From a virus (lineage: Duplodnaviria; Caudoviricetes), in IMG/VR virus record IMGVR_UViG_3300030906_000642, positions 1 through 58,056 of that record: DNA of 58,056 nt. One strand, written 5' to 3'. The notes under the pieces were generated by a model. That model searched no databases. It saw only the letters and a program-made list of their open reading frames with translations, and was not told the DNA's origin. Numbering within the stretch: the first letter of the stretch is position 1; each line of letters begins with the position of its first letter. Shown here one piece after another: positions 1,316 through 57,483 of the stretch. A program made the translations under genes and the position numbers.

Positions 1316-2569
1316 TCAGGTTCCGGAGAGGATCAGGCGTTCACCATCGGCGGCCATCTCCTGGTCGCCGGCTTCGTCGGTCCAGAGGTGGCCGTAAAGG
1401 TCCATGGTCATGGCCAGGGTGGCGTGGCCCAGCTTCTCCTGAAGCTTCTTCGGGGTGACGCCGTTCTTGATCTGGATCGAGGCGTAGACGTGCCGCAGCA
1501 TGTGCGGGGCGAAGTCCACCTTCAGCACCTTCCGCCCGCGCTGGCCCGGTTCGGTGTCGGCCAAGCCGGCCCGCAACATGAGCGGATTCCAGCACTGGCG
1601 GCGGAAGTCGGAGTAGGACCACAGCGGCCCAAAGCGACCGCCGGCCGGCCCCGGAAACAGGCGCGGCGGGATGTTGTGGCCCTGGCCGCCCGACAGGTGA
1701 ACGATGCCGCGGGCGGCGCGCCAGGCGCGCACGGCCTTGGCGGTGGCGGGGCCGAGCGGGACGTCGCGCAGGCCGTCCTCGCTCTTTACGTCGCCCAGGG
1801 TGGTGTGCCGCGAGCAGAGCTTCTCGACGACGTGGAGAATGCCGCCGGCGTTGGAATTCGCGCCGATCGCGCGTTTCAGTTCGGCCGCCTCGTCCGCCGC
1901 GCCGAGCAGCTCGGAAATGCGGAAGCCGCCGAACATCAGCAGATGCACGAGGGCGGTGTCCCGTTCGGGATGGGGGCCTTCGCTGGCGGCTTGGACCAGC
2001 GCGGTCAGCTGCGGCATCGGCGCCACCTCGACCTTCTGGTCGGCGCGCCGGCGACGCTTCTGGACGATCTTGGCCGCCTTGACCGGGTCGCCCTTAAGCC
2101 AGCCGTTGCGGGCGCCGTGGGCGCACCAGGCCGAGAGGCTGCGGCGCACCCGCCGCGCGGTCTCGACCGACCCGGTGCGGGCGATGACCCGATCCAGGAA
2201 GGCCTGTATCCGCGGCGTGTCCAGGTCGCTCAGGACCGTCGTCGGCAGGGCGGAGAATCCATCCTCTTCGGTGGTGGCGTCGATCGCCAGATGACAGCGC
2301 AGATGGGTGTCGTAGCCATCGGCCGTTCGCCGGTCGCGCTCGCCGGCGGCGACGATGGCGTCGAACCAGCGGTTATGGCTCTTGGCGAGGGCGAGCACCG
2401 TCATGTCGGCCGAGCCCGATGCGCCGACGCCATCGTGCTTCTTCACCCAGGCGTCCGCCTCGCGCTTGGTGGGATGGTTCCTGGACTTCCGCTTGCCCGA
2501 CAGCGTCTTGACCGTCGCCTGCCACGCCAGCTTGCCGGAGGAGTGGACGATCTTGCGGACGTTGGCCAT
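1316..2569 (-). CDS. int: Tyrosine recombinase (phage integrase)
   Basis: GFRISE (catalytic R), HMLRHVYAS (HxxR), LGH and DLYGH (catalytic Y); adjacent to the att site. Confidence 0.95.
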   Translation of the reverse strand: MANVRKIVHSSGKLAWQATVKTLSGKRKSRNHPTKREADAWVKKHDGVGASGSADMTVLALAKSHNRWFDAIVAAGERDRRTADGYDTHLRCHLAIDATTEEDGFSALPTTVLSDLDTPRIQAFLDRVIARTGSVETARRVRRSLSAWCAHGARNGWLKGDPVKAAKIVQKRRRRADQKVEVAPMPQLTALVQAASEGPHPERDTALVHLLMFGGFRISELLGAADEAAELKRAIGANSNAGGILHVVEKLCSRHTTLGDVKSEDGLRDVPLGPATAKAVRAWRAARGIVHLSGGQGHNIPPRLFPGPAGGRFGPLWSYSDFRRQCWNPLMLRAGLADTEPGQRGRKVLKVDFAPHMLRHVYASIQIKNGVTPKKLQEKLGHATLAMTMDLYGHLWTDEAGDQEMAADGERLILSGT

Positions 2570-2581
2570 GGGCGCTCCGGA

Positions 2582-2749
2582 TCAGGCAGTCTTCTTTGCC
2601 ATGAGCGCCGCTATCTGGCGATAGACTTCCATGAGGAACGGCGCGGGCGGCCGATCGCTGATCGGACCGTTTCCGATGCTCGGACCCCATAGCGCGGCTA
2701 CACCGCGCTGCGCGGTTTTGAGGTAGCTAGCGACCGCTATATCAGCCAT
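2582..2749 (-). CDS. Small hypothetical phage protein
   Basis: 55-aa ORF (MADIAVASYL...) overlapping the end of the excisionase-like gene and filling the gap to int. Confidence 0.35.
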   Translation of the reverse strand: MADIAVASYLKTAQRGVAALWGPSIGNGPISDRPPAPFLMEVYRQIAALMAKKTA

Positions 2750-2963
2750 AGCGCTGCGCTTCCTTCGCCTGCGGCAGTGTCTCGGGCGCGTGCATCCAGG
2801 CGTCCAGCTCCGACCGGAAGGCATAGACGCCGAGCCCCAGGCGCTTGCGGATCGGGACATCCCAGCCCTCCTCGCGCGCCTGATAGACCCAGCGGACCTT
2901 CTTGCCGAGATAGGTCGCGATGGCGTCCGCGCCGTCAAGGCGATCGTTGGCGAGGTCAGTCAT
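2742..2963 (-). CDS. Excisionase-like winged-helix DNA-binding protein
   Basis: 73 aa, LDGADAIATYLG..VRWVY...RSELDAWM pattern of AlpA/Xis-type HTH; upstream of the integrase. Confidence 0.75.
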   Translation of the reverse strand: MTDLANDRLDGADAIATYLGKKVRWVYQAREEGWDVPIRKRLGLGVYAFRSELDAWMHAPETLPQAKEAQRYG

Positions 2964-3310
2964 GGCGGGCTCAGACCCGCTGCGAGGGCGAGCGCGTCGC
3001 AGAGACGGTTGCGAAGCGTGCGCTGATCCTCGGCGTCCAGATAAACAACCTCAACGCCGAGGATTCCCCCAAACGGCTCGGGGAATACGGCGCCTGCCAG
3101 CGCCGGCGCGTTCGCTGCGTTCAGCGCCCGCAGTCGCGCGACATCGGCCGGGTGGACCAGATACCAATCGACGTCTTCATGGATGACCGGAATGGCGCGG
3201 TCGGGGAGGAAGACGAAGGAGACGCCAAACCGCATCCGGCGAGGCGCGGGCGGGAGCCGCCTGACCATGTCGATGAAGGCTTGGGCGTCCAAGGTGTTTG
3301 CGGCCATCAT
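2960..3310 (-). CDS. Hypothetical phage protein
   Basis: 4-bp start/stop overlaps with both neighbours in the leftward operon. Confidence 0.55.
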   Translation of the reverse strand: MMAANTLDAQAFIDMVRRLPPAPRRMRFGVSFVFLPDRAIPVIHEDVDWYLVHPADVARLRALNAANAPALAGAVFPEPFGGILGVEVVYLDAEDQRTLRNRLCDALALAAGLSPP

Positions 3311-3921
3311 CCGGCCTCGCTGTCGTCGCCCAGGCGACCCAGATGATAGCGTTGTGCGGCCGCCAGCTGCTGCGAGATTCGATCTGGGGTGTAGTCGCCA
3401 GCGCGGACGAGAATGGCCAGGCGACCCTTACCGTCCGTTCGTGTGGCTGCCGGTCCATCTGACGCGTCGAGCGAGGCTGCATTCACCCACATCTCGCCGG
3501 CTTCGATCTCGGCCGGGGACGCGCCCACGCATTGGGCATGGATGTCGCCGCAATCGACATCGGACACCACGGGCTGGCCATCCAGGAGCGGCTTACCGCA
3601 GCTCTCGCAGTATTCGTGATAGTCGCCGGCCAGGGCGTCCCGCAGGGCTGTGGACTGGGGAAGGATGGTCGACACAAGAATTCGCGCCTCCTCGTCTGTG
3701 TCCCCTTTCCGCGCGGCCGCCTCGGCCATCATGACGGCCGTCGAGAGGGTCGCGGCGGCGTTGGCGCGCCAGAAATGGACCTCCTCCCGCAGCTGGGCCA
3801 GTTCGTCTATCAGCGCGGTCCAGTATCTCCGCGCGGCGGCGTGGAAGATGAAGGCGGAGACGTCCTCGAGGGCGCGCAGCTCGTCGATCGGCGGCAGGAT
3901 GGGTGGGGTCTGCGCGCCCAT
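3307..3921 (-). CDS. Hypothetical phage protein with CxxC...CxxxHxxC zinc-binding motif
   Basis: CESCGK...DCGDIHAQC; coupled to both neighbours. Confidence 0.6.
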   Translation of the reverse strand: MGAQTPPILPPIDELRALEDVSAFIFHAAARRYWTALIDELAQLREEVHFWRANAAATLSTAVMMAEAAARKGDTDEEARILVSTILPQSTALRDALAGDYHEYCESCGKPLLDGQPVVSDVDCGDIHAQCVGASPAEIEAGEMWVNAASLDASDGPAATRTDGKGRLAILVRAGDYTPDRISQQLAAAQRYHLGRLGDDSEAG

Positions 3922-4415
3922 CACGCCCACCCGATGTAGCGGCAGGCCGACAGGTGATCGACCACGGGGCCAAGGCGGCTCCCCAGGTCATCCGGCGGCG
4001 TCCAGTTGAAGAGACCCTGGCGACCGGCTGCTGGCACGGGCCTAAGGAGTGGGCGCAGGTTGTCGACGCGCAACGCAAAACGCTCCTCGGCAAAATTGCC
4101 CGCCGCCCTGTCGGCTTGGGTAAGCGAAGAGGACAGGCGTTTTGCACCGACGCATGCGGTGAGTTCGCCGATGGCGAGCACCATGCCGACGGGCACCAGC
4201 CGCCGCCAGTTCTTGCCAAGGGCCGCCGCGCAGAGCGCTTCCGGCGCGCCGACAACGTCGAGGGTGAGGCCGGCATGGATGGCGATGGGGCCGCGATAAG
4301 GTGTCGCCCAATCACGAACGTCGTGGCGCTTGACGCCGGCGGCGAATAGCGAGGCCCAGGGCTGCCAAAGGGTCAGCGCCTTGAAGGTGGTGGTCTGTGC
4401 AAAGAGGTCGGTCAT
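3921..4415 (-). CDS. ASCH-domain (PUA-like) protein
   Basis: KALTLWQPWASLFAAGVKRHDVRDWATPYRGPIAIHAG and GRQGLFNW are ASCH signatures. Confidence 0.85.
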   Translation of the reverse strand: MTDLFAQTTTFKALTLWQPWASLFAAGVKRHDVRDWATPYRGPIAIHAGLTLDVVGAPEALCAAALGKNWRRLVPVGMVLAIGELTACVGAKRLSSSLTQADRAAGNFAEERFALRVDNLRPLLRPVPAAGRQGLFNWTPPDDLGSRLGPVVDHLSACRYIGWA

Positions 4416-4496
4416 GGGTGATCCGAAATGATCTGATGGGGAAGGGCCGCCGGTGAGCGAGGCCGAAGGCCACGAGCCCACCGGCGGCCCTTGGGC

Positions 4497-5324
4497 TCAG
4501 GCGGCAAGTTCGGCGTCGATGACTTCCAGCAGCAGGTCGAACGACCGGGCGTAGCTGGTGCGGCGAGCCACCTCCGCCGCCGCCTCCGCCACCGCCACCT
4601 CCGCCGCCGCCACCGCCTCCGCCGCCGCCGCCACCGCCTCCGCCACCGCCACCACCGCCACCGCCACCGCCTCCGCCGCCTCCGCCTCCGCCGCCACCGC
4701 CACCGCCACCGCCACCGCCGCCGCCTCCGCCGCCACCGCCGCCGCCTCCGCGCGCCGCCGGCGCGCGGCGTAGTAGTTGCTCCAGGCCTGATCTCTCAGA
4801 ACACGCGCCTGGTCGCGGATCGGAACGTAGGCCTTCCAGTGTGTCGAGGGGTCGAGCAGCAGGGTCAGCAACTGGTCGGAAAGGCCCTTCAGTTCGGGCC
4901 AAAAATCGGGCGTATGATCGCCCAGCTTGGCCTGAGCTTCGTCAATCGCGCCGGTGAATACCCGGGTGATGAAGGTGCGCCGCACACGCTCCCAGGCGGC
5001 GGCGTCGAACACCGACCAGCGATGCAGCCGCTGTGCATAAGCCTCGCCATAGTGAAAGATGCGCTCCTCGGGAACGCCGTCGAACAGGCGCACGGTGAGA
5101 CGCGCCAGCCATTCCGGCATCAGCCGCGCGGGGCAGTCGGACGGGCTGTCGATCGACGGATGGATCGAGCCCAGCAAGCAGGCGATCTCGACGCCAACGC
5201 CGTCGTCGCCGCCCCGGCGCCCGTGCCACTGACCCTGGGTCAGGCGGCGTTCGCGCACGTGGGTCATGATGTTCTCGGCCGCCACGTCGTTGGTGATGGC
5301 GTCTAGCGTCAAGGCTTCAGGCAT
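4497..5324 (-). CDS. Hypothetical phage protein with a 61-residue Ala/Glu/Val low-complexity tract
   Basis: Globular N-terminal part (CLLGSIH...MPEWLARL..LFDG); start MPEALT overlaps the upstream gene. Confidence 0.7.
   Translation of the reverse strand: MPEALTLDAITNDVAAENIMTHVRERRLTQGQWHGRRGGDDGVGVEIACLLGSIHPSIDSPSDCPARLMPEWLARLTVRLFDGVPEERIFHYGEAYAQRLHRWSVFDAAAWERVRRTFITRVFTGAIDEAQAKLGDHTPDFWPELKGLSDQLLTLLLDPSTHWKAYVPIRDQARVLRDQAWSNYYAARRRRAEAAAVAAEAAAVAVAVAVAAEAEAAEAVAVAVVAVAEAVAAAAEAVAAAEVAVAEAAAEVARRTSYARSFDLLLEVIDAELAA
4569..4751 (-). repeat. Aperiodic (GNG)61 trinucleotide tract
   Basis: 61 consecutive codons that are only GCG, GAG or GTG on the minus strand. Confidence 0.95.
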
Positions 5325-8000: not shown

Positions 8001-9953
8001 TCAATCCTTGAAAGGGTAGGCGCGGATGCGGGCGACGAGGGCCTCGACGGCGTCCAGGCTGCGCCCGGAAACTTCGGCGGCGCGCTTCATGTCGAGGCGG
8101 GTAATCCAGTGCTGGAACAAGGCGTCGAGGATGCCGAGCTCCGGCGCGTCCAGGCCGAAGACGTTCTTGCCCCTGGCCGGTTCGCCGGGGGCGGCGGGCA
8201 AGGCCTCGACCTCATGGCCTTCGCCGCCTTCTTCAGCCTCCATCTCCTCGCGCACCTCCCGCAACTGCTGCGAGAAGGCGTCGCCGGTCAGGCCCGGGAT
8301 GGCCTTCACCGGGGCGTTGAGCCACGCTGTGGCGTAGGGGCCAGAGCCGGCGACCTTGGCGCTCCAGGCGCCGTGGAATTCCGCGAGGTTGATGGGGTGC
8401 GGCAGGTCACCGTCCTCGCGGGCCTGCTTCAGCCAGCCCTCGCCGACGTCGGTGAGGTAGACTGCCCAGTCGGCGCCGCTCGGCTGCATCAGGCCGAGCA
8501 GCTTGAGGTTTCGGATCAGCGCCGACGCGGCGGCGCTGGAGGGCATGCCGTCGACCTTGGCGGCCCAGACACCGCCGCGCGCCGAGAAGCCTTTCTCCGC
8601 CAACTTGTGGCAGACCTCGGCCATGACCAGCATCTGGGGGTTGGAGAGGATCGGGATGTCGATGCGCGGCAGGTTGGGTGTGTCGCCGTGGGCGCCGACC
8701 GGCTCAGCCTGAGGCGATTGGGCGGTCGGCGTTTCGGGGGCAGCGACGCCGCGAACCGGGTTCGCGGGCGTCAGCGGTGTCTCGGTCGCCGCCGTGTTGA
8801 GCCAGTCGGTGAGGTATCGCCCGTCCCTGGCCAGGGCGCCGGCGGTGAGCGGTCCGGCGACGGCGTCGCGGAGGCGGTAGAGACAGTCGGCGCGTTCATC
8901 GACAAAGCCGATCTGGACGAACCAGACGGTCAGGTCCTGGTTGGCCCGCAGGCTGACGGACAGGGCGCCGTCGCGGCCCGACCGGGTGTCGATCATCTGG
9001 CGTTCGCGCAGGGTGGACAGGGCGCCGCCTTCACCCGGCTTTACGGCGATGAAGCCATTGACGTCGCCGGTGCGGTACTGGGCCGCGTCGGCAATCTCGG
9101 CCACCAGCACGGCCAGCTTGGGCGACAGGTCCAGCGCGGGCTTGGGCCTGCTCTCGGTGACATTGTCGCGCACCTCGCGATAGTTCTTTTCGCCGCTCTC
9201 CAAGGCGGCGAGGTCTTCCGGGGAAGCGCGGTTGAGCACCTTCAGCCGATCCTGGACCGTCTTGGCAAGCCGCCCGCTCTGGCGGGCGCATTCGGCGGCG
9301 GTCCAATGCTTGGCGTCACACAGCCGCTTGAAGGCGCGGGCCTCATCCAGTTCGCTCATCGGCGCGCCGGAGTTTTCCAGCAGGCCGATCAGGATCACCT
9401 CCTCCGCGTCGGCCGGGGCTTCCTCGACGGCCGGCATGGGCATGTCCGGGTCATAGCGGCCATCCTCGATCAATCTGCCGACAGCAAGCCAGCGGCGCTG
9501 GCCGGCGAGGATGAAGCGATGGCCGCCCACGCTGGGAGGTGTGACGATCAACGCATCCTTGACTCGGCCGACGGCGTCTATCGCGCCCATCAGCACCAGC
9601 AGCTCCTCCTCGTCGATGGCGTGGCGGGGATTGTCCGGATGGGGCGTCAGGTAGGCGTGCAGGACCTCGATCTCGCGGCCCTGGCGCTCACCGGCAGCCC
9701 CGTCCAGGCTGAGACGCCCCGCGCCGACGTCCATGGCCCGCAGCGCCAGATCCGCGCGGTCGGTAACCGTCAGGCCGTCGGCGCTGATAAGGCCCTCGTC
9801 CCGCAGCCGGCTGATGGTCTTGCTGAAGTTGGACTTGTCGCGCCCCAGTTCCTTGGCCAGGGCGGCTGGCGTGGCGGGGAGGTCGTCTTCCTTCAGGCGG
9901 CGCAGCAGGGGCTCGTTCTCGACGGCCAGGGGCGACAGGGGCGAGGCGTTCAT
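8001..9953 (-). CDS. wHTH + ParB/Spo0J-family DNA-binding protein (orphan, no ParA seen)
   Basis: N-terminal winged HTH (PAALAKELGRDKSNFSKTISRL), ParB box I PHPDNPR, box II ILAGQRRWLA, LLEN..., HTH WTAAECARQSGR..TVQDRLKVL, long C-terminal extension. Confidence 0.88.
   Translation of the reverse strand: MNASPLSPLAVENEPLLRRLKEDDLPATPAALAKELGRDKSNFSKTISRLRDEGLISADGLTVTDRADLALRAMDVGAGRLSLDGAAGERQGREIEVLHAYLTPHPDNPRHAIDEEELLVLMGAIDAVGRVKDALIVTPPSVGGHRFILAGQRRWLAVGRLIEDGRYDPDMPMPAVEEAPADAEEVILIGLLENSGAPMSELDEARAFKRLCDAKHWTAAECARQSGRLAKTVQDRLKVLNRASPEDLAALESGEKNYREVRDNVTESRPKPALDLSPKLAVLVAEIADAAQYRTGDVNGFIAVKPGEGGALSTLRERQMIDTRSGRDGALSVSLRANQDLTVWFVQIGFVDERADCLYRLRDAVAGPLTAGALARDGRYLTDWLNTAATETPLTPANPVRGVAAPETPTAQSPQAEPVGAHGDTPNLPRIDIPILSNPQMLVMAEVCHKLAEKGFSARGGVWAAKVDGMPSSAAASALIRNLKLLGLMQPSGADWAVYLTDVGEGWLKQAREDGDLPHPINLAEFHGAWSAKVAGSGPYATAWLNAPVKAIPGLTGDAFSQQLREVREEMEAEEGGEGHEVEALPAAPGEPARGKNVFGLDAPELGILDALFQHWITRLDMKRAAEVSGRSLDAVEALVARIRAYPFKD
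8751..8765. repeat. 15-bp palindrome copy 1 (GCGAACCGGGTTCGC), inside the parB-like gene
   Basis: Exact match; the inverted repeat extends to 8749..8767; read as ANPVR. Confidence 0.9.
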
Positions 9954-49196: not shown

Positions 49197-50021
49197 ATGA
49201 TCCTGATGATCGCTCCCGCCTCGGGGATGACGTTCGGCGCCATGCCCTCAGGCGCCAGCTACGTCTCCGACCCCTTCGCCCTGGTGCGAATTTTCAACGA
49301 CTCCAGCGCCGACCAGACCGCCCTTGAGGGCGCGGGGTGTTTCACCCTGACGCCCTTCGGCAACTGGGGGAACGCCGGCTTCGTCACCCTGGCGGACCTG
49401 TACGCCGCCGACACCGGGTCGATTCTGCCGGGGATCACCGGCTATCCGATCCACACCGTCGCCACGGTCTTCACCGACCCGACCCTGGCCAACTGCGGCA
49501 CCTGGGCCAAGACCACGACGGGCAATGGCTCCGGCGCCTGGACCCAGGTTTCCACCGAAACCCTGGCCTCGATCGCCACGACCGCAGGCGCCGCCGCGAC
49601 CAGCGCCGCGACCGCCGCGACGACGGCCTCCGCCGCCGCGGCCGCGGCTGGAACATCGGCCGCCACGGCGTCAGGGGCCGCCACCACGGCGACCACGGAA
49701 GCTGGCATAGCGACGACCGCCGCCGGCTCAGCCTCGGCGTCAGCAACCGCGGCCGCCAACGCCGCCGCCGCCGGAACCGGCGGCCAGGTGTTCACGACCC
49801 ACGCCGCCTTTGCCGCCGCGCTGAGTGGTCTCGGGAACGCCAATTATCAGGTGATCGCGGACGAAACCCACGGCGGCGACTGGACCATCTATTCGGTCGC
49901 CAGCCATGCCGCGACCTTCCTGATCGACCTGTCGCCCGGCGGCATGTCGGAGCCCCAGCTGACCTCGCTGTTCAACGCCATGCAGGCCGCCGGCCTGTTC
50001 GCGAACTTCCAAGGGATCTAG
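49197..50021 (+). CDS. Tail-fibre-like protein with Ala/Thr/Ser-rich stalk
   Basis: GAGGA RBS; long AATSAATAATTASAAA region; no clear signal peptide. Confidence 0.65.
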   Translation: MILMIAPASGMTFGAMPSGASYVSDPFALVRIFNDSSADQTALEGAGCFTLTPFGNWGNAGFVTLADLYAADTGSILPGITGYPIHTVATVFTDPTLANCGTWAKTTTGNGSGAWTQVSTETLASIATTAGAAATSAATAATTASAAAAAAGTSAATASGAATTATTEAGIATTAAGSASASATAAANAAAAGTGGQVFTTHAAFAAALSGLGNANYQVIADETHGGDWTIYSVASHAATFLIDLSPGGMSEPQLTSLFNAMQAAGLFANFQGI

Positions 50022-50026
50022 CCCCC

Positions 50027-52279
50027 ATGACCTTTAAGACCGCGCTGGCGGCTTCGGCCGCCCTGATGGTGCTTGCCTGCGCGTCCGCGTCGATGGCGCA
50101 GACAACCACCAACGCCCTGCCGGCCAACGCCGCGCCGCTGCCCACCGACGTGGTTTCCTGTCAGCCGGCGGCGGCGGGGACCACGCCCGGCACCGCCAAA
50201 AAATGCACCCTGGCCCAGGTCGTCTCCGCGACCCCGCCGAGCGCGATGGCCACGGCTTTGCGTCCGCAGAACACCCCGTGGAACGCCAACAATGGCATGA
50301 CCAATTTCGGCGACAGCGTCACGGCCGGTTTCGGCACGACCGTTTTTCCCACCAACGGCTATGCCAACCTGATGGCCGTCGACTTCGTCAATGGGGTCGG
50401 TAAATTCAACAACCTGGGCGTCTCCGGTGACGACGCCGCCGACGTCGCAACCTCGATGTTCACCAACCTGAACCCGACAGATTCCGGCAATCCGATCGTC
50501 ACCGTCATGGACGGGATCAACGACCGGACCAATGACCCGAACAAGCAGGTGGTTTTCCAGCAAATCCTTGGCTCAGGCATCGTCCGCGCGGCGATCTCCA
50601 ACACCAACACCGTGGCGGCGGCCGCGGCCCTGGTGACGGCGGCGGGGGCTTGGTCATCCGACACGACCTTCGCAAATCTGACCGGCGAGACGTCGACCAC
50701 GAACGGTTCGACGCTCACGCTGACGAGCGCTAACTTTCCGGGAGGCGTCTTCTACCTCTACTACCGGATCAACAACAGAGGCGGCACGACCACAGGCGGC
50801 AGTTTCACGGTGTCGGTGGACGGGACTGTCGTCGCCGACACCGTCTCCGGCGCCTCGCCGATCACGACGTTGCCTTTCGGCGGCGCGACCTACCCAAGCA
50901 TTGCGGCGCTTCCAACGGCTCCGGCGCTCGCGCGATTTCCGGTTGCCAGCGGTATCCATACGGTCGTGGTGACGGTGACGTCTCCAACCCTATCAACCAA
51001 CCCGGTCCAAATTCTAGGGTTCGCCATCCCCAACGGCCAGATCGGCGGCCAGAGCGCCCCTCGCGTCGCCGTCGGCGGCACCATCTTTCAGCAGAATGGC
51101 GCCCAGGAGAATTTGCAGGCGCCGATGAACGTCCTGAACCAACAGATGGCGGCCCAATTCGCCGCCGACGGCCTGGACGTTCGCTTCGCCAATGTAAGAG
51201 CCTACATCAATTCCACGACCGACATGGCGTCGGTGGCGACCCAGAATTGCCCCGCCAGCACCGCGCCAGGACTGCACCCCAACGACTGCGGCCATCGGCA
51301 CCTGGCCCAGGCCTTCGAGGACACGATCGCCGCCACCAGCGCTCCGCTCACCCAGCCGCTCAACCTGTCTGGCCTTCCCGTGCCGGCGACGCAAGACTTG
51401 GCGAATGGTCAGACCGTGGACGATGGCACCCACCTGGCTGCCGGCGGCCACTGCGTTTCGACTTTCCTCGGCTATTGCTGGGGCGAGACGATGCTCTTGG
51501 CGGGCGGGCGCTACACCAATATCCTAATGGCCGGCAACACCAGCTCGATGGGCTTCGGCTTCAGCTTTGCCCCTGCGCATCCGACGACGGCTCAGGTCCT
51601 TGCCGGGCTCGCCTACAAGTTCAGCGAGGACAACAGCATGCAGTGGGGCACGGCGGGAGCCGGCGTCACGGCTAATGAGCAATTGCAGCTGGCGCTTGCC
51701 GCCCCCCCGACGTCCCTGTCCGGCTATCATGAGGTGCGCGGTAGCGGCACAAGTTCTTCGGGCCTGATCGGTGGCCTGGATATCGGCGACAGCGGCGTCT
51801 TTGGCGGCATTCACTGGCTGTTCGATACAACCCACAGCGCCTTCGCCTTTGGCGTCTACGCGCCGAACAATGAGAATATCTGCAGCTTTTTCTACCCGTC
51901 CGGAACGACGCCCACCGCCGCGTCGAACTTCACCTGCCCGGACTACGTGACGCCGACGGGGGATCGTGACAGCAATTCATTCACGGCCGCGACGGCTTTC
52001 ATCGCTGGCGGCAGCGCGCCGGCCGGATCAGGATCCTGCTCGATTGGGACCCAGACCGGCGGCAACACCGTGGGCTTCTTCAAGACGCCCAGCGCCTGTT
52101 CGGCGACCACGGCGACCCTGACCTTCAGCAAGACGGCGCCCACCGGCTATGTCTGTCACGTCACCGACATGACCTCGGCCGCCATCGCCCCGCAAACGTC
52201 TTCGTCCCTAACATCCTGCACCGTGAAAATCACCAGCGGCGCGAACGACAATTTCGCCTTCAGCGCGATGGCCGGTTGA
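50027..52279 (+). CDS. Signal-peptide-bearing SGNH/GDSL esterase with Cys-rich beta C-terminus
   Basis: MTFKTALAASAALMVLACASASMA-Q; blocks FGDSVT, NLGVSG, GIND and GLHPND.GH; 12 Cys in the mature part. Confidence 0.82.
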   Translation: MTFKTALAASAALMVLACASASMAQTTTNALPANAAPLPTDVVSCQPAAAGTTPGTAKKCTLAQVVSATPPSAMATALRPQNTPWNANNGMTNFGDSVTAGFGTTVFPTNGYANLMAVDFVNGVGKFNNLGVSGDDAADVATSMFTNLNPTDSGNPIVTVMDGINDRTNDPNKQVVFQQILGSGIVRAAISNTNTVAAAAALVTAAGAWSSDTTFANLTGETSTTNGSTLTLTSANFPGGVFYLYYRINNRGGTTTGGSFTVSVDGTVVADTVSGASPITTLPFGGATYPSIAALPTAPALARFPVASGIHTVVVTVTSPTLSTNPVQILGFAIPNGQIGGQSAPRVAVGGTIFQQNGAQENLQAPMNVLNQQMAAQFAADGLDVRFANVRAYINSTTDMASVATQNCPASTAPGLHPNDCGHRHLAQAFEDTIAATSAPLTQPLNLSGLPVPATQDLANGQTVDDGTHLAAGGHCVSTFLGYCWGETMLLAGGRYTNILMAGNTSSMGFGFSFAPAHPTTAQVLAGLAYKFSEDNSMQWGTAGAGVTANEQLQLALAAPPTSLSGYHEVRGSGTSSSGLIGGLDIGDSGVFGGIHWLFDTTHSAFAFGVYAPNNENICSFFYPSGTTPTAASNFTCPDYVTPTGDRDSNSFTAATAFIAGGSAPAGSGSCSIGTQTGGNTVGFFKTPSACSATTATLTFSKTAPTGYVCHVTDMTSAAIAPQTSSSLTSCTVKITSGANDNFAFSAMAG

Positions 52280-52339
52280 GGCTTTCAGCGTCCTGGATCA
52301 GCGCGCTTACCCGCCGCCCGTGAGCCATTGGAGCCCAGC

Positions 52340-52558
52340 ATGCCCGTCCCCACGCCTCCCGAGGCGCCCGTCGTCGTGTCCTCTGCGCCGCGCCGCTCGG
52401 TGGACACCTATTTGGTGGTGCAGGCTATTGTCGTCCTGATGCTGGGCGCGCTCGCCCTGGCTTTGGTGCTCAAGGGCGACACTAGTCATGCAGCGGAGAT
52501 CGGCGCCGGCCTGATCGGCGCCCTGGCGCTGAACCGCAAGCGGAGCGGCGAGCAATGA
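52340..52558 (+). CDS. Holin candidate (2 TM)
   Basis: Two hydrophobic helices, basic C-terminus, ATGA overlap with the endolysin. Confidence 0.65.
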   Translation: MPVPTPPEAPVVVSSAPRRSVDTYLVVQAIVVLMLGALALALVLKGDTSHAAEIGAGLIGALALNRKRSGEQ

Positions 52559-53007
52559 CCCCGTCCACCGCCTGCGCATCGCTCATCAAGCAGTTCGAGA
52601 CCTGCGGCAAGCCGCTGGGCGACGGCCGCTTCATCGCCTACCTGCCGACGCCACAGGATCGCCCGACCATAGGTTGGGGCACGACCGGACCCGACATCAA
52701 GCTCGGATTGGTCTGGGCCAGGGCCGAGTGCGATGTCCGCTTCGCCGCCGATCTCAAGACCTTCGGGGAGGGGGTGGCTAAGCTGATCACCGGCCCCACC
52801 ACTCAGGCCCAGTACGACGCCATGGTCTGCCTGACCTACAACATCGGCCCGGGCAGCTTCCGCGTCTCGACCCTGCTGCGGATGCATAACGCCGGTGACC
52901 ACGAGGGCGCAGGCGCCCAGTTCGCCGACTGGAACAAGCAGGCCGGCAAGGTCCTAGCTGGACTGACCACCCGCCGCGCCGCAGAGGCCGCGCTGTACCG
53001 CTCCTAA
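52555..53007 (+). CDS. Endolysin, GH24 lysozyme
   Basis: IKQFE..AY..PTIGWGTT, QYDAMVCLTYNIG, STLLR, GLTTRRAAEAALY. Confidence 0.92.
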   Translation: MTPSTACASLIKQFETCGKPLGDGRFIAYLPTPQDRPTIGWGTTGPDIKLGLVWARAECDVRFAADLKTFGEGVAKLITGPTTQAQYDAMVCLTYNIGPGSFRVSTLLRMHNAGDHEGAGAQFADWNKQAGKVLAGLTTRRAAEAALYRS

Positions 53008-53093
53008 CCATCACGCAATCTGGGGACAAAAGCGCCCCTGATCTGACCGGCCAGAAGCCGAGTGGGCCAGAGCGCCCAATCGAAAGCCTACAC

Positions 53094-53321
53094 ATGCCCG
53101 AAGTGAACAGCGCGTCCGACGAGCGGACCGTCAACAACACCATGCGCCACGCCTATCGCGTCCTGAGTGACGACGAGAAGGCCAAGATGCAGGCCATCAA
53201 GGACCAGGGCCTCGCGTTCCACGACTTCATCGCCAGCCTTGGCTCCAGCCGCGAAATCTCGCTGGCCAAGACCAAGGTCGAGGAAGCGGTGATGTGGGCC
53301 GTCAAGCACCTCACGGCCTGA
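53094..53321 (+). CDS. Acb2/Tad1-like cyclic-nucleotide sponge candidate
   Basis: YRVLSDDEKAKMQAIKDQG resembles the Acb2 N-terminal helix; SREISLAKTKVEEAVMWA resembles the Tad1/Acb2 hairpin helix. Confidence 0.7.
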   Translation: MPEVNSASDERTVNNTMRHAYRVLSDDEKAKMQAIKDQGLAFHDFIASLGSSREISLAKTKVEEAVMWAVKHLTA

Positions 53322-53433
53322 GCCCGTCATGTCCCCGGCGGCGACCCTGCCGGGGACCAACCCATCCGCCCCGCTCGTGGGCCGATCCGTGCTGGCCGGA
53401 TGCCGGATAGCAGAAGAACTAGGAGAACCAACC

Positions 53434-53664
53434 ATGCTGACCGCAGGTCCGCTGACCGTGAAACATATCGAGTCGAACGGCTTCGAATCGATCGTGCAGT
53501 CCACCCATGTGAACTTCATTCCGGGCGATACCCAAAACCCGACCGAGCTGATCGCTTTCGGCGTCGCGCAGCCGGTTTCTGATGGCTGCAATCGCTACCG
53601 GAATGGCATCGTCTATGTGATGAACGAGGCCGGCGCGACTGTCGCCAAATACGAGATCGACTGA
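53434..53664 (+). CDS. Small hypothetical phage protein
   Basis: AGGAG RBS; GIVYVMNEAGATVAKY. Confidence 0.65.
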   Translation: MLTAGPLTVKHIESNGFESIVQSTHVNFIPGDTQNPTELIAFGVAQPVSDGCNRYRNGIVYVMNEAGATVAKYEID

Positions 53665-53822
53665 AACGCCGAAGCTGCGCCGGCTGATAGGCGCGGAAGC
53701 TGGGCTCGCCCAGCCGAGCGGGTGGAAGGCCCGCACCTCATCAATCTCCGACCACACCCATCCCGGCGCACCCCGCGCCGAGACGAGGGCCATTGCGCCC
53801 ACAACCTGAAGAGAACCGCACC

Positions 53823-54176
53823 ATGTCCACTACCGAAAACCCCCTGCAGGAAGTCGAAGGCGCCGCCGTGGCGACCTGGGACACCATCAAGAGCAAGCTC
53901 GGCGCGACCTTCGGCGCGCTTGCCACGGTCGGCGCGACCGACGCCGCCTCGGCGATCGGCGCGCTGGGCTCCGCCGCCGTCACCTTCGGCCCGACCCTGC
54001 TGATCCAGGCGGCCGACCTGGTGCAGACCGTCGTCTCCGAAGCCGAGCAGGGCGCGAGCTATGCCGACATCGAGACCGCCGTCCTGAACAAGGCGGAGGC
54101 CGATGGCAAGGCCGACCTGACGGCCATCGAAACCGACGTCTGGCAGGTCCTGATCGGCCTGTTCGCCAAGGCCTGA
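53823..54176 (+). CDS. Acidic Ala-rich helical hypothetical protein
   Basis: 117 aa with phage-like codon usage; followed by a terminator. Confidence 0.65.
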   Translation: MSTTENPLQEVEGAAVATWDTIKSKLGATFGALATVGATDAASAIGALGSAAVTFGPTLLIQAADLVQTVVSEAEQGASYADIETAVLNKAEADGKADLTAIETDVWQVLIGLFAKA

Positions 54177-54239
54177 CCCCTCGGGCGCTCGCGCCCGTCT
54201 CGATGCGGCTGCGCCGGTGGCGGTGCTGGCCGCAGTCGC

Positions 54240-54285
54240 GCGCCCCGGCCTTTCCCTCCCCTGTGAGGCCGGGGCGCAGTTTTTT
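54240..54285 (+). terminator. Intrinsic terminator inside the lysis region
   Basis: gcgccccggcct / aggccggggcgc 12-bp stem followed by agtttttt. Confidence 0.7.
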
Positions 54286-54298
54286 CGAAAGATCACCG

Positions 54299-54961
54299 AT
54301 GACCGACATCCTTGCGCCGGCGGTCTCGCCGTCCAACGCCATCAACGACCCGTCGAAGACCCTGCGGGATTTCGCGCTGGCGGACCTGGCTCAATACACG
54401 CCCGAGCGGACGCCTGACCCCAACGCCAGCAAGGACGTGCAGCTGTTCCTGGTCGGCAAGGATGACGTGCACGATGTGCTAAAGCACCTGCTCAGCCGCG
54501 CCTCGATCTGCATCCACCTCAATATGTTCGGCTATGACGATGAAGAGCTGAACACGATCCTCATGGCCAAGGCCATGGACCCGAACGTCTATGTGTTCAT
54601 CACCCTGGACCTGAGCCAGGCCGGCGGAAAGCACGAGGCGGCGCTGATCGCCCTCGATCGCCAGATGAACCTCGCCGCGTTCAACACCCACTTCGCGATC
54701 GGTCAGTCCGCGACACATTCCATCAGCCACACCAAAGGCGCCGTGCTTGACAACCGCGTCGTGTTCCAGGGCTCGGTCAACTGGTCCAGGGACGGGGAGG
54801 GGACCTTCGTCACCCGGGGCCAGCCCGGCGGCGTTGGCTACAAGGCCCAGAACAATACCCTGGACGTCATCCTCGACCTGGGTATTGCCGCGCGCTTCCA
54901 GGCCAGGCTGAGCGACGAACACCTGATCGCCGTCAAACAGCAACTGGCGAAGGCGGCCTGA
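54299..54961 (+). CDS. Phospholipase D superfamily protein (single HKD; Nuc/MitoPLD-like)
   Basis: SHTKGAVLDNRVVFQGSVNWS = HxKxxxxD..GSxN; QNN; no signal peptide. Confidence 0.85.
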   Translation: MTDILAPAVSPSNAINDPSKTLRDFALADLAQYTPERTPDPNASKDVQLFLVGKDDVHDVLKHLLSRASICIHLNMFGYDDEELNTILMAKAMDPNVYVFITLDLSQAGGKHEAALIALDRQMNLAAFNTHFAIGQSATHSISHTKGAVLDNRVVFQGSVNWSRDGEGTFVTRGQPGGVGYKAQNNTLDVILDLGIAARFQARLSDEHLIAVKQQLAKAA

Positions 54962-54968
54962 TCGCGCC

Positions 54969-54983
54969 GCGAACCCGGTTCGC
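54969..54983. repeat. 15-bp palindrome copy 9 (intergenic)
   Basis: GCGAACCCGGTTCGC, exact, in the 30-bp gap after the PLD gene. Confidence 0.9.
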
Positions 54984-54991
54984 TTCCCGCC

Positions 54992-55171
54992 ATGACTGAT
55001 CTCCAGCGCGACCAACTGGTCGCCGCCGTCTTCGCCACCCCGGCCGGCAAGCGGCTGATCGAGGATGTCCAGGCGCGCGGCGCGACCTGCCTCACCCTCG
55101 CCGATATCGCTGCCGCCATCGCCCGCGCTCGGCGGACGTGGTCGACCGCCAATCCGGAAACCCACGAATGA
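54992..55171 (+). CDS. Small hypothetical protein (59 aa, not in the ORF track)
   Basis: MTDLQRDQLVAAVFATPAGKRLIEDV...; ATGA overlap with the desaturase start. Confidence 0.6.
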   Translation: MTDLQRDQLVAAVFATPAGKRLIEDVQARGATCLTLADIAAAIARARRTWSTANPETHE

Positions 55172-55707
55172 TCGCCACCGTCCTGGGCCAGCTGCTGATC
55201 GGCTGGCTGATCACCGATTTTCTGAGCGGCGTCGCCCACTGGTGGGAGGACCGCGTCGGCCGCCGAGACTGGCCGGTGATCGGCCGCATCGTCGTGGTTC
55301 CCAATCGCGAGCATCACCGCGTGCCGCTGGCCTTCCTGCGCGCCCGGCTGTGGAAGCGGAACCGCGCGGTCTGGCTGGTCGCCGGCCTGATCTCGATCAC
55401 GTGGCTGCTCTTGTTGGGGCCGTCCTGGACCTGGGCGTCGGCGACGATCGGCGGCCTGGTGGTGGGCGAGGTCCACGGCCTGGCGCATCGGCCGCCCCGG
55501 CCGGGATCCTGGCCGGGGATTCTGCAGCAGATCGGCCTGATCCAGTCGCCACCCCACCACGCCGGCCATCACCGGGCGCCCTCCGACCGTCGCTACTGCA
55601 TCCTGACCGACTGGCTCAACCCGGTGCTCGACAGGGTTGGCTTCTGGGTCGCCCTCGAGACCGCTCTGACCTGCATCGGCCTTGAACCCAACAGGGGAAC
55701 AGCATGA
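55168..55707 (+). CDS. CarF / TMEM189(PEDS1) / FAD4-family lipid desaturase
   Basis: DFLSGVAHWWED, REHH, VHGLAH, HHAGHH and YCILTDWLNPVLD: the histidine boxes of this family, plus TM helices. Confidence 0.85.
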   Translation: MIATVLGQLLIGWLITDFLSGVAHWWEDRVGRRDWPVIGRIVVVPNREHHRVPLAFLRARLWKRNRAVWLVAGLISITWLLLLGPSWTWASATIGGLVVGEVHGLAHRPPRPGSWPGILQQIGLIQSPPHHAGHHRAPSDRRYCILTDWLNPVLDRVGFWVALETALTCIGLEPNRGTA

Positions 55708-56321
55708 TCCTCAACACCGTCCGCTTCATCATCGGCGTCTTCTGCACGACAGCCCTGTTCTGGGCCGGGATGCTGTTCGAGCACCGGCCGGCCGGTTGGC
55801 CCAACCTCAACGTGCCGCTGCCCTTTGGCGCCCACTGGACATTCCAGCTGCCCGACGGGCCATACGTCAAACTCACCGTCCTGCAAGCCCGGGAGGCGCA
55901 AGCCGGCCGCCAGGTCGTGGCGCTCCAGGCCAGGCAGTTGGCGATCGCCACGAGGGCGAATGCGGCTCAGGCCGCCGTCCAACTCAGAATTCAGACTGTC
56001 ACCAAAACCCTCATCAAGGAGGTTCCCGTCTATGTCGATCGCCAAGCTGTCGCTGCTTGTACTGTCAACACTGGCTTTGTGCGCCTGTACAACGCCGCCG
56101 TCGTCGGCGAGCCCCTCCCAGGCGGGGATGCCAACACCGCCAGCGGCGCTAATGACGCCCCCTCCGGTGTTGGACTCGATACCGTTGCCCGCGTCTCCAT
56201 TACCAACCTCGGAAAAGCCCACTCGGCCATAGAGCAGGTGAGAGGCTGGCAGACCTGGTATCAGTCTGAATATCAGGCGTGGCTCGCCACCCGCGCCAAG
56301 CTCGCCAACCCAGCCAAATAG
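55704..56321 (+). CDS. i-spanin (Rz-like)
   Basis: N-terminal TM and coiled region, TKTLIKEVPVYV..C..GFVRLYNAA; hosts an embedded lipoprotein gene. Confidence 0.8.
   Translation: MILNTVRFIIGVFCTTALFWAGMLFEHRPAGWPNLNVPLPFGAHWTFQLPDGPYVKLTVLQAREAQAGRQVVALQARQLAIATRANAAQAAVQLRIQTVTKTLIKEVPVYVDRQAVAACTVNTGFVRLYNAAVVGEPLPGGDANTASGANDAPSGVGLDTVARVSITNLGKAHSAIEQVRGWQTWYQSEYQAWLATRAKLANPAK
56032..56232 (+). CDS. o-spanin (Rz1-like lipoprotein) embedded in the +1 frame
   Basis: AAGGAGG RBS; MSIAKLSLLVLSTLALCA-C lipobox; Pro-rich mature part. Confidence 0.82.
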   Translation: MSIAKLSLLVLSTLALCACTTPPSSASPSQAGMPTPPAALMTPPPVLDSIPLPASPLPTSEKPTRP

Positions 56322-56358
56322 CCACCGTCCCCGACCCGCGTAGAAGGATCGCCGAACG

Positions 56359-56664
56359 ATGCCCCCCGAATCGACCCTTACGACCCGCCTGCTGGACGCT
56401 GGCGCCCCGGCATGGGCGATCATGATGGCCGAGGAGGTGGGCGGCCTGAAGCAAACCATCGGCGTCCCCAGCGACGACGGCAAGAGCGGCTCCGGCTTGG
56501 TCGGAAAGGTCAACGACATGGGGGCCAAGATGGACGGGCTGATGAGTCTGAAAACCCTCGGCATCGGCGCCCTCGGCGGCATCGCCCTGGTGCTGGCCAT
56601 CGTCGTGTTCGGCCTCAAAGGGACCTTCGCCGCGGTCCTCGGGATATTCGGGGTCAAGGTTTAG
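56359..56664 (+). CDS. Membrane protein, last late gene
   Basis: AAGGA RBS; long C-terminal hydrophobic segment. Confidence 0.65.
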   Translation: MPPESTLTTRLLDAGAPAWAIMMAEEVGGLKQTIGVPSDDGKSGSGLVGKVNDMGAKMDGLMSLKTLGIGALGGIALVLAIVVFGLKGTFAAVLGIFGVKV

Positions 56665-56709
56665 GCCCCTGCCGCCGGCCGCCCGCGACTCGCCATATCG
56701 ACCGGCCCC

Positions 56710-57045
56710 TTAAGCGCCGCGGTCCCCGGAAGGGGCCGCGGCGCTTTTTGCGTTTTCGCAAGCGGCCTTCTCGGCCATCGTCGGCGCCTCATCACCCGGC
56801 GACCCAGGGTGCCATCCGCCGCCCATGCCGATGACGAAGGCCGATACCTGCGCGGACCCGCACTGGGGGCACCGCAACCGAGGCCCCACGACGCCCAGCG
56901 TCCCGTCCGGGGTGAAGCGCTCCACCAGCTGACGCCCGGACCAGGTCCTCTCCGCCTTGCAGTCAAGGCAGGTGAACCGGACGCCATTGCCCACCGCCGC
57001 GATGTGCCCGAATCGCCAGTCGTGATGGGAAGAAACTTGCGTCAC
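56710..57045 (-). CDS. Small zinc-ribbon protein (CxxC...CxxC), probably SOS-regulated
   Basis: FTCLDC...LRCPQCG; GTG start at 57045 directly downstream of a LexA box; the start is inferred. Confidence 0.65.
   Translation of the reverse strand: MTQVSSHHDWRFGHIAAVGNGVRFTCLDCKAERTWSGRQLVERFTPDGTLGVVGPRLRCPQCGSAQVSAFVIGMGGGWHPGSPGDEAPTMAEKAACENAKSAAAPSGDRGA
56712..56749 (+). terminator. Intrinsic terminator ending the late operon
   Basis: aagcgccgcggtcccc-ggaa-ggggccgcggcgcttttt. Confidence 0.85.
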
Positions 57046-57051
57046 GCGGCC

Positions 57052-57066
57052 GTTCTGCGTCCGTTC
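57052..57066. promoter_or_regulatory. Alphaproteobacterial LexA (SOS) box
   Basis: GTTC-tgcgtcc-GTTC = GTTC-N7-GTTC, ending 6 bp from the zinc-ribbon start codon. Confidence 0.65.
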
Positions 57067-57253
57067 ACGGCCGGAGTCCAGGGACGAAAGAGGAACGCCG
57101 CGTCGCTCGCGCGTCGCTCGGAGTTTTCCGGAACAGCTCGGAAAATCCGGAAAAGGACGTAAATTCAATGATGAGAGAGGGTGGTGCGAAGTCGTCCCCG
57201 GAGCGCCAAAAAGGAGCGCCGGTTTGGATAATTAGCCAATAATTTCAGCAACG

Positions 57254-57305
57254 TAAGTTTGGAGGCCTGGCCGAGAATCGAACTCGGGTACACGGATTTG
57301 CAGTC
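57254..57305. repeat. Right attachment site (52-bp direct repeat)
   Basis: Identical to 1207..1258; overlaps the intact tRNA. Confidence 0.97.
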
Positions 57306-57333
57306 CGTTGCGTAACCACTCCGCCACCAGGCC
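57260..57333 (-). tRNA. tRNA-Cys (GCA)
   Basis: GGCCTGGTGGCGGAGTGGTTACGCAACGGACTGCAAATCCGTGTACCCGAGTTCGATTCTCGGCCAGGCCTCCA: 74 nt, cloverleaf, GCA anticodon, encoded CCA. Confidence 0.97.
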
Positions 57334-57483
57334 GCGCCGCATTTCTGGCCTTCCGGCCTCGCGCGAGGGGCGATGGCTAACAGAAGGGCCGCCGGGGAGC
57401 AATCCTATGCGTCCAGGCCAATTGCGCTCTCGTTAAGAGCGGCCCTATAAGCGGATCAATTCCATCCTTAGGGCTCCCGGCCA

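Follow-up and report, generated by a model that had tools for sequence, protein, structure and literature searches.

A predicted PF10520 lipid desaturase whose gene overlaps the spanin genes and a single-HKD PLD-fold protein in a probably split lysis cassette of a prophage

The textbook scheme of phage lysis comprises a holin, an endolysin, and a spanin or disruptin, and the lysis cassettes that encode these proteins are known as frequent insertion sites of unrelated cargo; lipid-modifying and phosphodiester-cleaving enzymes lie outside the standard holin/endolysin/spanin picture. The subject of this work is the lysis region of an IMG/VR provirus record (IMGVR_UViG_3300030906_000642, positions 1 to 58,056); this whole stretch of 58,056 nucleotides (G+C ~67%) is called the window. 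In the window, the endolysin and the spanins are parted by ~2.7 kb that hold six cargo genes, including those for a membrane lipid desaturase of Pfam family PF10520 and for a protein of the phospholipase D (PLD) superfamily with a single HKD motif; a small open reading frame (ORF) of 59 codons, orf59, lies between these two (Table 1).

The closest described relatives of the desaturase are CarF of Myxococcus xanthus and PEDS1 (TMEM189), the plasmanylethanolamine delta-1' desaturase, and FAD4, the plant and algal chloroplast delta-3-trans 16:1 phosphatidylglycerol desaturase. According to the part of PMC9131029 available to us, eight histidines are conserved in all CarF homologues and are essential, a ninth (H113), required for making plasmalogens, is confined to the branch with the animal, myxobacterial, and Leptospira proteins, and CarF has an established topology of four transmembrane helices; the same text states that plant and alphaproteobacterial homologues fail to complement carF, a point that the available part of PMC13012113 also makes for the alphaproteobacterial homologues. 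Phage-carried membrane lipid desaturases that are thought to alter host membranes have been described as well, that is, the vFADs, which are delta-9 fatty-acid desaturases of cyanophages (PMC5776448, from the portion at hand).

For the PLD protein, the closest described systems are Nuc (Salmonella pKM101, 1byr), NucT (Helicobacter pylori, 6ehi), and Zucchini/PLD6 (4ggj), all with one HKD motif per chain; for the spanins, they are the embedded pairs of the lambda Rz/Rz1 type. We favour, with confidence only a little better than even, a reading of the locus as a split lysis cassette with independent cargo, in which a late FAD4-like desaturase and a Nuc-like PLD protein are separate acquisitions.

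The desaturase matches PF10520 (Lipid_desat) at profile positions 1–172 of 175 with an E-value of 4.8e-33 and a score of 115.1 bits, compared with a gathering threshold of 26.4 (114.5 bits in a six-frame search). This bears out the membership in the CarF/TMEM189/FAD4 family that had been proposed in an earlier reading of the window made without database searches (the sequence-only reading), and the four histidine boxes named there are all present: HWWED (residues 24–28), EHH (48–50), HGLAH (103–107), and HHAGHH (130–135). H24, H49, H50, H103, H107, H131, H134, and H135, as well as D28, which is located four residues past the first histidine (H24), are invariant in 34 of 34 aligned relatives; the family, the eight histidines, and this aspartate are shared with CarF/PEDS1, and the family and the eight histidines with FAD4.

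The vinyl-ether chemistry that the sequence-only reading gave for CarF and TMEM189 is unlikely here. The score of the desaturase with the NCBIfam CarF equivalog model (NF045946) is 86.6 bits vs a cut-off of 500 (profile positions 58–229 of 269); residues 51–102, that is, the interval from H50 to H103, contain no histidine, none is conserved there in the alignment, and the ninth histidine of CarF (H113) is absent. With the published failure of alphaproteobacterial homologues to complement carF, these differences led us to reject a plasmalogen (CarF/PEDS1) function, and we classify the desaturase as a clear member of PF10520 that is not a CarF/PEDS1 equivalog. In lacking the ninth histidine that PEDS1 needs (PMC9131029, the part cited above), it resembles FAD4 and the alphaproteobacterial branch. 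Compared with FAD4 by description, the phage desaturase differs in its size (179 residues), its three predicted helices, its restriction to the bare domain, and its location in a late operon.

The AlphaFold2 (AF2) model of the desaturase (predicted local distance difference test, pLDDT, 93) contains membrane helices at residues 2–29, 61–83, and 87–105, and a hydropathy scan agrees on three. The protein starts at the start of the Pfam domain with nothing outside the bare domain, and it does not have the four helices of CarF; on the model, the three-helix form is a minimal variant that is compatible with family membership. When the model was compared with known structures (VIA-align), the Scs7p hydroxylase (4zr0) gave Z 8.0 (root-mean-square deviation 3.7, 146 residues aligned), the next unrelated row Z 4.8, and SCD1 (4ymk) Z 4.0; Foldseek returned no match to the model in the PDB at E ≤ 0.001. 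The desaturase is predicted to adopt the membrane di-iron hydroxylase/desaturase fold. The cyanophage vFADs, by comparison, we take to lie outside PF10520.

The PLD gene, orf59, the desaturase gene, and the spanin genes are located where the sequence-only reading had placed them. The desaturase gene has the same orientation as the late genes, and the two ATGA overlaps that had been noted are present: the stop of orf59 overlaps the start of the desaturase gene (55168–55171), and the desaturase stop overlaps the i-spanin start (55704–55707). The earlier description of PLD, orf59, and desaturase genes between the endolysin and the spanins holds for all three, but it omitted an Acb2/Tad1-type gene and two further genes (orf111 and orf127) in the same interval.

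A word-indexed protein search identified 88 relatives of the desaturase (157–231 residues, E ≤ 1e-3), few of them named (Sphingorhabdus and Blastomonas). Two of 50,697 phage records hold a desaturase relative. In Erythrobacter phage vB_EliS-L02 (CbK-like), the gene is located between phoH and portal and is annotated as hypothetical; this phage is lytic (PMC9127768, in the part available), and the word desaturase is absent from the text of that paper. IMG/VR yielded 13 loci, and a scan of species-representative genomes another 11; L014, a fragment of 34 residues, was left out of the context counts, and these collection scans rest on few peptide patterns (two in the genome scan) and are not censuses. 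The 11 genome loci are from Brevundimonas, Allosphingosinicella, Sphingomonas, Sphingorhabdus, a Sphingomonadales metagenome-assembled genome (MAG), a MAG labelled Fibrobacteria, and five Bacteroidota (36–37% identity). The host names had suggested that phages with this desaturase are confined to hosts that produce sphingolipids, an idea that we dropped as unsupported. We drew the genes in fetched loci with our own ORF and GC3 (G+C at third codon positions) filter and then searched PHROG and Pfam, so small genes may be missed or misdrawn.

The gene contexts of the desaturase are (a) the window (orf59–desaturase–spanins); (b) four P2-like prophages (L002, L043, L044, L046); (c) six Mu-like loci (L003–L005, L007–L009) with the order head, adaptor, Neck1, a 67-aa membrane protein where drawn, desaturase, sheath; (d) terS–desaturase–terL (L010, L041); (e) membrane protein–desaturase–terS–terL (L045); (f) terL–portal–protease–desaturase–major capsid (L011–L013); (g) a capsid and adaptor region (L006); and (h) phoH–desaturase–portal (L001). 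In all annotated viral or prophage contexts, the desaturase gene is part of a late operon whose genes share one strand; the minimal three-helix desaturase occurs in such operons of Sphingomonadales and Caulobacterales phages.

In group (b), the gene order is holin (phrog_2359), endolysin, i-spanin-like gene, a lipoprotein gene (LPGC/LAGC) that overlaps the i-spanin-like gene, desaturase, and tail completion/terminator; the endolysins are Phage_lysozyme (two loci), Amidase_2 (one), and Tlde1/YkuD-like (one). The i-spanin-like products, of ~190–260 residues, carry a membrane helix at the N-terminus; between the o-spanin-like lipoprotein gene and the desaturase gene, stop and start overlap by 1–4 nt. 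The i-spanin-like genes had no match in the PHROG and Pfam scans; because the L044 lipoprotein (phrog_456, E 9.3e-6) is the sole match to a spanin PHROG in this group, the identification of its spanins rests on position and architecture. The recurring link between desaturase and spanins that the sequence-only reading had called for is found in these four prophages, but not in about six other kinds of context, among them the neck–sheath, terS–terL, protease–capsid, and phoH–portal ones, which have no spanin in the vicinity.

In a maximum-likelihood tree, the group (b) desaturases cluster together (support 82/94) with the window copy outside, the backbone being unresolved; the nearest relative of the window copy is a terS–terL copy from Brevundimonas (60% identity). 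The desaturase is located 5' of the spanins in the window and 3' of them in group (b), and the spanins of the two have no detectable relationship. Because the clades are separate, the order is reversed, and the spanins are unrelated, adjacency to spanins probably arose twice; we regard the repeated adjacency as suggestive, lysis cassettes being common insertion sites. For this desaturase, then, family membership, intact metal ligands, and a late-operon position are accompanied by overlap with spanin genes in two apparently independent lineages, and this repeated coupling points tentatively to a function around lysis.

In four host genomes, the single match of at least 110 bits is the copy that brought in the locus; three of these loci (L041, L045, L046) are annotated and hold phage genes, and the fourth (L043) is not annotated. 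Among 301 genomes sampled from the order of one host, nine have a protein above the PF10520 cut-off, two of them strong. One of the two strong matches (L093, G069:C103) is a longer, apparently chromosomal PF10520 homologue (137.6 bits) beside a uvrB-like gene, a possible cellular relative of the phage desaturase clade.

The PLD protein carries HTKGAVLDNRVVFQGSVNWS, that is, HxKx4Dx6GSxN, with the layout H144-T-K146-GAVL-D151-NRVVFQ-G158-S159-V-N161. In 30 of 30 relatives H144, K146, D151, G158, S159, N161, and E167 are invariant, and so is a loop, GEGxF...GGxGYKAQNNT. PLDc_2, the family named in the sequence-only reading, matches the protein in Pfam with E 8.2e-6 and 26.1 bits, just under the gathering threshold of 27; two relatives pass (L015, 30.7 bits; L030, 28.7 bits). 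The AlphaFold model (pLDDT 79) has NucT (E 8.6e-7), Zucchini (3.2e-6), and Nuc (4.1e-6) as its best Foldseek matches; of the 54 PDB chains found at E ≤ 0.001, the 34 listed are all PLD-fold or PLD-like-domain chains. This fits the fallback of the sequence-only reading, which had allowed for a Nuc-type enzyme. At the level of sequence the match to NucT is E 0.035, and the defence-system models gave weak matches to DrmC (E 0.002–0.004) and nothing else.

Two copies of the PLD protein were predicted to interact (ipSAE 0.63 vs 0.00 for the best control), a mark that 20 of 30 proteins with solved pair structures attain, as does one of 23 whose solved structure is a single chain. At least 98% of the contacts are the same between runs, and the partner pLDDT is at least 79. 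The predicted interface involves residues 137–147, 157–161, and 181–187, and the HKD motifs meet there as in Nuc; because Nuc-type dimers have already been solved, similarity to them may be all that this score reflects. One HKD motif per chain, the structural matches, and the predicted symmetric dimer with the motifs at its interface are the features in common with Nuc, NucT, and Zucchini; the phage protein differs in being only 16–18% identical to them and in having ~45 extra conserved N-terminal residues, the invariant loop, an acidic core, no signal peptide, and a location in phage late/lysis regions. Domain fusions were pursued as a clue to the substrate and gave none: no fused domain was found in the two longer proteins of the family, one of which (402 residues) has a low-complexity Lys/Ala/Pro-rich tail of the histone-H1 type and the other of which looks frameshifted.

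The PLD family is large, with 2,327 clusters at E ≤ 1e-3 and ~60% identity across phyla, nearly all of them unannotated. The 119 relatives listed are 59–79% identical to the query and include sequences from Acidobacteriota, Bacteroidota, Alphaproteobacteria, and Dormibacteraeota; in one Atlas cluster, with 505 members, most labels read Uroviricota. Uncultured phages are the main carriers of the family. The family has no match in the 50,697 sequenced phage records or in PHROGs, and a search of 401 alphaproteobacterial genomes with an alignment query, for which there was no positive control, gave no match at 1e-10. In IMG/VR, 24 loci with G+C contents of 36–70% provide 16 non-redundant contexts after removal of near-identical loci (L017–L019, the same as L016; L022, as L023; L031, as L030; L037, as L036; and L029, close to L028) and of one partial locus (L038).

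In six of the 16 contexts, an endolysin gene adjoins the PLD gene or is one small ORF away: L015 (ORF 4510–5013, tblastn to the window endolysin E 1e-7), L016 and L020 (phrog_181), L023 (phrog_90), L032 (LysM and Rv2525c-like hydrolase domain, 46% G+C), and L033 (GH25, 36% G+C). An endolysin is found within ~2.3 kb in two more (L024, L028). In L032 and L033, small membrane-protein genes are located beside the PLD gene and no spanin-like gene was identified; we take these two for phages of hosts without an outer membrane, and, if so, the function of the PLD protein is not spanin-specific.

Two of these loci have other features. In L020, ~700 bases 3' of the PLD gene, positions 3282–4391 encode a patatin-like phospholipase (PF01734, E 3e-25), followed by an SRAP gene; judging from its domain, this would be a second lipid-active enzyme near a lysis region. 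In L034, an ORF of 1,087 codons (1541–4804) with portal, NUDIX, and Mu-F domains is located directly 5' of the PLD gene; this may be a true fusion or several genes merged by ORF drawing.

Between the two enzyme genes, orf59 encodes a small conserved soluble protein with seven same-sized homologues (57–64 aa, 40–51% identity) among 1.84 billion representatives; the other four matches besides its own cluster are long proteins. No relative was found in IMG/VR and no family match in Pfam, PHROG, NCBIfam, or the defence models. We rejected orf59 as an electron carrier or obligate partner of the desaturase, given its one cysteine, the lack of a family match, and the lack of a homologue in 25 other desaturase loci.

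The spanins of the window fit the two-component embedded architecture known from lambda Rz/Rz1: the i-spanin has an N-terminal hydrophobic membrane helix (residues 1–26), and the o-spanin is a lipoprotein nested out of frame in the i-spanin gene; unlike that pair, they are separated from the endolysin by the cargo. Relatives of the i-spanin occur in 36 IMG/VR loci (34–59% identity), an embedded o-spanin homologue being detectable in 12 of them, and none of the 36 has a match to the PLD protein, orf59, the desaturase, or the endolysin of the window. In all 11 of the loci inspected, the spanin gene starts where the gene before it (266 aa in 10, drawn as an ORF of 335 aa in L062) stops, and tail-completion-sized genes come after the spanin gene. 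The upstream gene of L052, the sole one scanned, encodes a muramidase endolysin with PG_binding_1 (PF11860, E 2.5e-65). From these 11 loci and the L052 muramidase, the usual layout is an endolysin followed directly by the spanins.

The region would then make up the distal half of a lysis cassette in a prophage, interrupted by three independent pieces of cargo: the Acb2-like gene with two further genes, closed off by a hairpin terminator; the PLD gene; and orf59 with the desaturase gene, which are coupled in translation to the i- and o-spanin genes. That at least three cargo units accumulated here separately is suggested by the Acb2-type gene and by the hairpin in front of the PLD gene. The desaturase would be made late with the spanins, placed in the inner membrane, and supplied with electrons by a host redox partner; using oxygen, it would desaturate a host membrane lipid close to its head-group end, in the manner of FAD4 and without forming a vinyl ether, with changed properties of the inner membrane around assembly and lysis as the outcome. 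The PLD protein would be a soluble, acidic, single-HKD phosphodiesterase, predicted to be a homodimer with the HKD motifs at the interface, and is most likely a Nuc-like nuclease or phosphodiesterase that is produced together with the lysis proteins or set free by them; activity on a phospholipid is possible, but less likely than a Nuc-like activity. The two enzymes would be separate acquisitions and not parts of one pathway.

Several observations weigh against this account. The desaturase has one helix fewer than the four of CarF, its gene has no electron-donor gene as a neighbour, and orf59 contains just one cysteine. Most of the desaturase context types have no spanin or endolysin within ~3 kb, so a lysis-specific role of the desaturase is not general. 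The core of the PLD protein is acidic in 30 of 30 members (pI 5.0–5.9, net charge −5 to −11), which would be unusual for a non-specific DNA binder and argues against bulk DNA binding. Eight of the 16 PLD contexts have no nearby endolysin (the neighbours are terminase, portal, DNA polymerase, glycosyltransferases, homing endonucleases, and other genes); the adjacency of PLD and endolysin genes may reflect tolerance of insertion rather than function, and the hairpin at 54240–54285 could separate the PLD gene transcriptionally from the endolysin.

The sequence-only reading had joined the two enzymes in a late lipid-remodelling module; spelled out, the PLD protein would trim head groups and the desaturase would alter chains, easing membrane fusion by the spanins. 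The arrangement from which this was drawn is real, that is, both genes are located between the endolysin and the spanins, orf59, the desaturase gene, and the i-spanin gene are chained by ATGA overlaps, the desaturase gene overlaps spanin genes in a second lineage, and the PLD family often adjoins endolysins. However, the 14 viral/phage and 11 genome loci with a desaturase yielded no PLD relative, and the 24 loci with the PLD gene yielded no desaturase; in addition, the PLD gene occurs beside LysM and GH25 endolysins at 36–46% G+C where no spanin-like gene was identified, its product has the fold of nucleases as its nearest match, and related spanins occur without either gene in 36 of 36 loci. 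Because the two enzymes do not co-occur in any of these other loci, a shared lipid-remodelling module is not supported; we rejected it on this ground and consider it very unlikely. Lysogenic conversion, in which the resting prophage alters the host envelope (cold or acid-peat adaptation, or superinfection exclusion) and lysis is not involved, we judge to be highly improbable as well. The genes are located at the prophage end beside attR, a position typical of conversion genes, and only two of the 301 genomes of the order have a strong desaturase, which would therefore be an added host trait where present; against this, coupling to spanins would make expression in a lysogen dangerous, the region from 52000 to 57400 has no promoter-like site (0.6 expected; the scan does not model alphaproteobacterial promoters), and the desaturase is also found in a lytic CbK-like phage (PMC9127768, in the part available).

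It is unlikely, too, that the whole insert is an anti-defence or accessory island, in which the PLD protein would break down an immune signal with phosphodiester linkages or a nucleic-acid effector and the desaturase would render membrane lipids poor substrates for phospholipase or pore-forming abortive-infection effectors. An Acb2/Tad1-hairpin gene does begin 86 bp past the endolysin, within the lysis cassette; the ~60% identity of PLD proteins across phyla suggests a universal small target, their acidic core suits a small-molecule substrate better than bulk DNA, and the only sequence similarities are the weak ones to DrmC and NucT. Both enzymes, however, are encoded in late operons with overlapping stops and starts, and anti-defence genes are usually early; neither enzyme matched a known anti-defence family in Pfam, PHROG, or the defence models, and the terminator-like hairpin sets the Acb2 unit off from the PLD gene.

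Returning to the split cassette with independent cargo, a stronger claim can be attached to it: that chemical remodelling of the envelope is an accessory step of lysis, with an inner-membrane lipid, unsaturated near the head group by the spanin-coupled desaturase, tuning holin or spanin action or membrane fusion and the HKD enzyme representing a new class of lysis-cassette protein that cuts an envelope or nucleic-acid phosphodiester just as lysis takes place. This we hold to be distinctly unlikely, but if either enzyme acts in lysis, it would be a new functional class for phage lysis, and if the desaturase does, it would offer a handle on the non-plasmalogen bacterial CarF/FAD4 branch. In the published literature on phage CarF-type or PLD/HKD enzymes and lysis, we found no paper on either family, and the PLD family, which flanks endolysins across viral DNA of 36–70% G+C, is highly conserved yet missing from the sequenced phage records and PHROGs. 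If these genes are nothing more than cargo, the locus clearly illustrates how a lysis cassette can serve as an insertion hot spot, here with a candidate anti-defence gene of the Acb2 type included.

The features of the region are listed in Table 1. A 60-nt direct repeat (1207–1266 and 57254–57313, 95% identical) repeats the 3' part of tRNA-Cys and represents attL and attR; because the pair duplicates this part of the tRNA gene, the prophage spans ~56 kb and the lysis region is its right end. The stop of the holin-like gene overlaps the endolysin start by 4 nt; its product had no family match in the Pfam or PHROG scans, and we infer the holin role from gene position. The Acb2/Tad1-type protein is a candidate sponge for immune signalling nucleotides (anti-defence), to judge from its domain. 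No family match was found for orf127 (Pfam, PHROG, NCBIfam, or defence-model scans) or orf101 (Pfam or PHROG scans). All ORFs from 52328 to 56664 show the high GC3/low GC2 (second codon positions) pattern that is typical of real genes in this genome.

Table 1. Annotated features at the right end of the prophage (window coordinates)
Feature	Position	Strand	Evidence and remarks
Holin-like 76-aa membrane protein	52328..52558	+	hydrophobic stretch at residues 24–53; GC3 0.84
Endolysin (phage lysozyme)	52555..53007	+	PF00959 E 2.9e-33; phrog_7 E 2.5e-42
Acb2/Tad1 hairpin-domain protein, 75 aa	53094..53321	+	PF24729 E 2.6e-19, 69.6 bits vs cut-off 27
orf111	53329..53664	+	phrog_3909 (PHROG label: unknown function) E 2.3e-7; GC3 0.73
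orf127	53793..54176	+	GC3 0.89–0.92; alternative start ATG at 53823 possible
Terminator-like hairpin	54240..54285	+	13-bp GC-rich stem and U6; RNA fold −34.1 kcal/mol, z −2.79
Single-HKD PLD-superfamily protein, 220 aa	54299..54961	+	HKD motif; PLDc_2 26.1 bits
15-bp palindrome GCGAACCCGGTTCGC	54969..54983		in the 30-bp gap between the PLD gene and orf59
orf59, small conserved soluble protein	54992..55171	+	GC3 0.82
PF10520 membrane di-iron lipid desaturase (predicted), 179 aa	55168..55707	+	PF10520 115.1 bits; three predicted transmembrane helices
i-spanin (Rz-like)	55704..56321	+	phrog_4952 E 3.1e-24; phrog_8821 (Rz-like) E 8.1e-8; phrog_1403 (Rz-like)
o-spanin lipoprotein	56032..56232	+	lipobox LALCAC; ORF in another frame of the i-spanin gene
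orf101, tail-anchored membrane protein	56359..56664	+	final gene of the operon; hydrophobic residues 61–101; GC3 0.89
Strong intrinsic terminator	56712..56746	+	closes the late operon; 15-bp stem with 12 GC pairs, T-rich tail
attR and tRNA-Cys	57254..57333	-	right prophage boundary; tRNA-Cys itself 57260–57333

The terminator-like hairpin is located after orf127 and directly 5' of the PLD gene, inside what otherwise resembles a single late operon, and the terminator scan caught part of it; an Acb2 unit with its own transcript may end here, or the hairpin may be passed by antitermination. A sigma-70 promoter scan of 52000–57400, which does not model alphaproteobacterial promoters, found no site (0.6 expected). 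No RNA runs were listed with the stretch, and it recurs in peat-metagenome DNA runs only; contigs from four such runs carry the identical sequence, and the only joints, with short sides of 20–36 letters, were not trusted.

The palindrome 3' of the PLD gene, GCGAACC(N)GGTTCGC, has nine copies in the window (at 8751, 10467, 13971, 17977, 27904, 30626, 38409, 48307, and 54969) vs 0.07 expected, and is possibly a hairpin or protein-binding site. Just 5' of the holin-like gene, positions 50018–52279 (+) encode a 753-aa protein with a GDSL/SGNH esterase domain (PF13472, 37.8 bits), which is possibly a fibre or spike of the tail whose esterase modifies the receptor. Near the other end of the window, there is a long triplet-repeat run of the CCGCCACCGCC type (4546–4779, families D1–D6); in translation it would be rich in Gly or in Pro/Ala, according to the strand and frame that are read.

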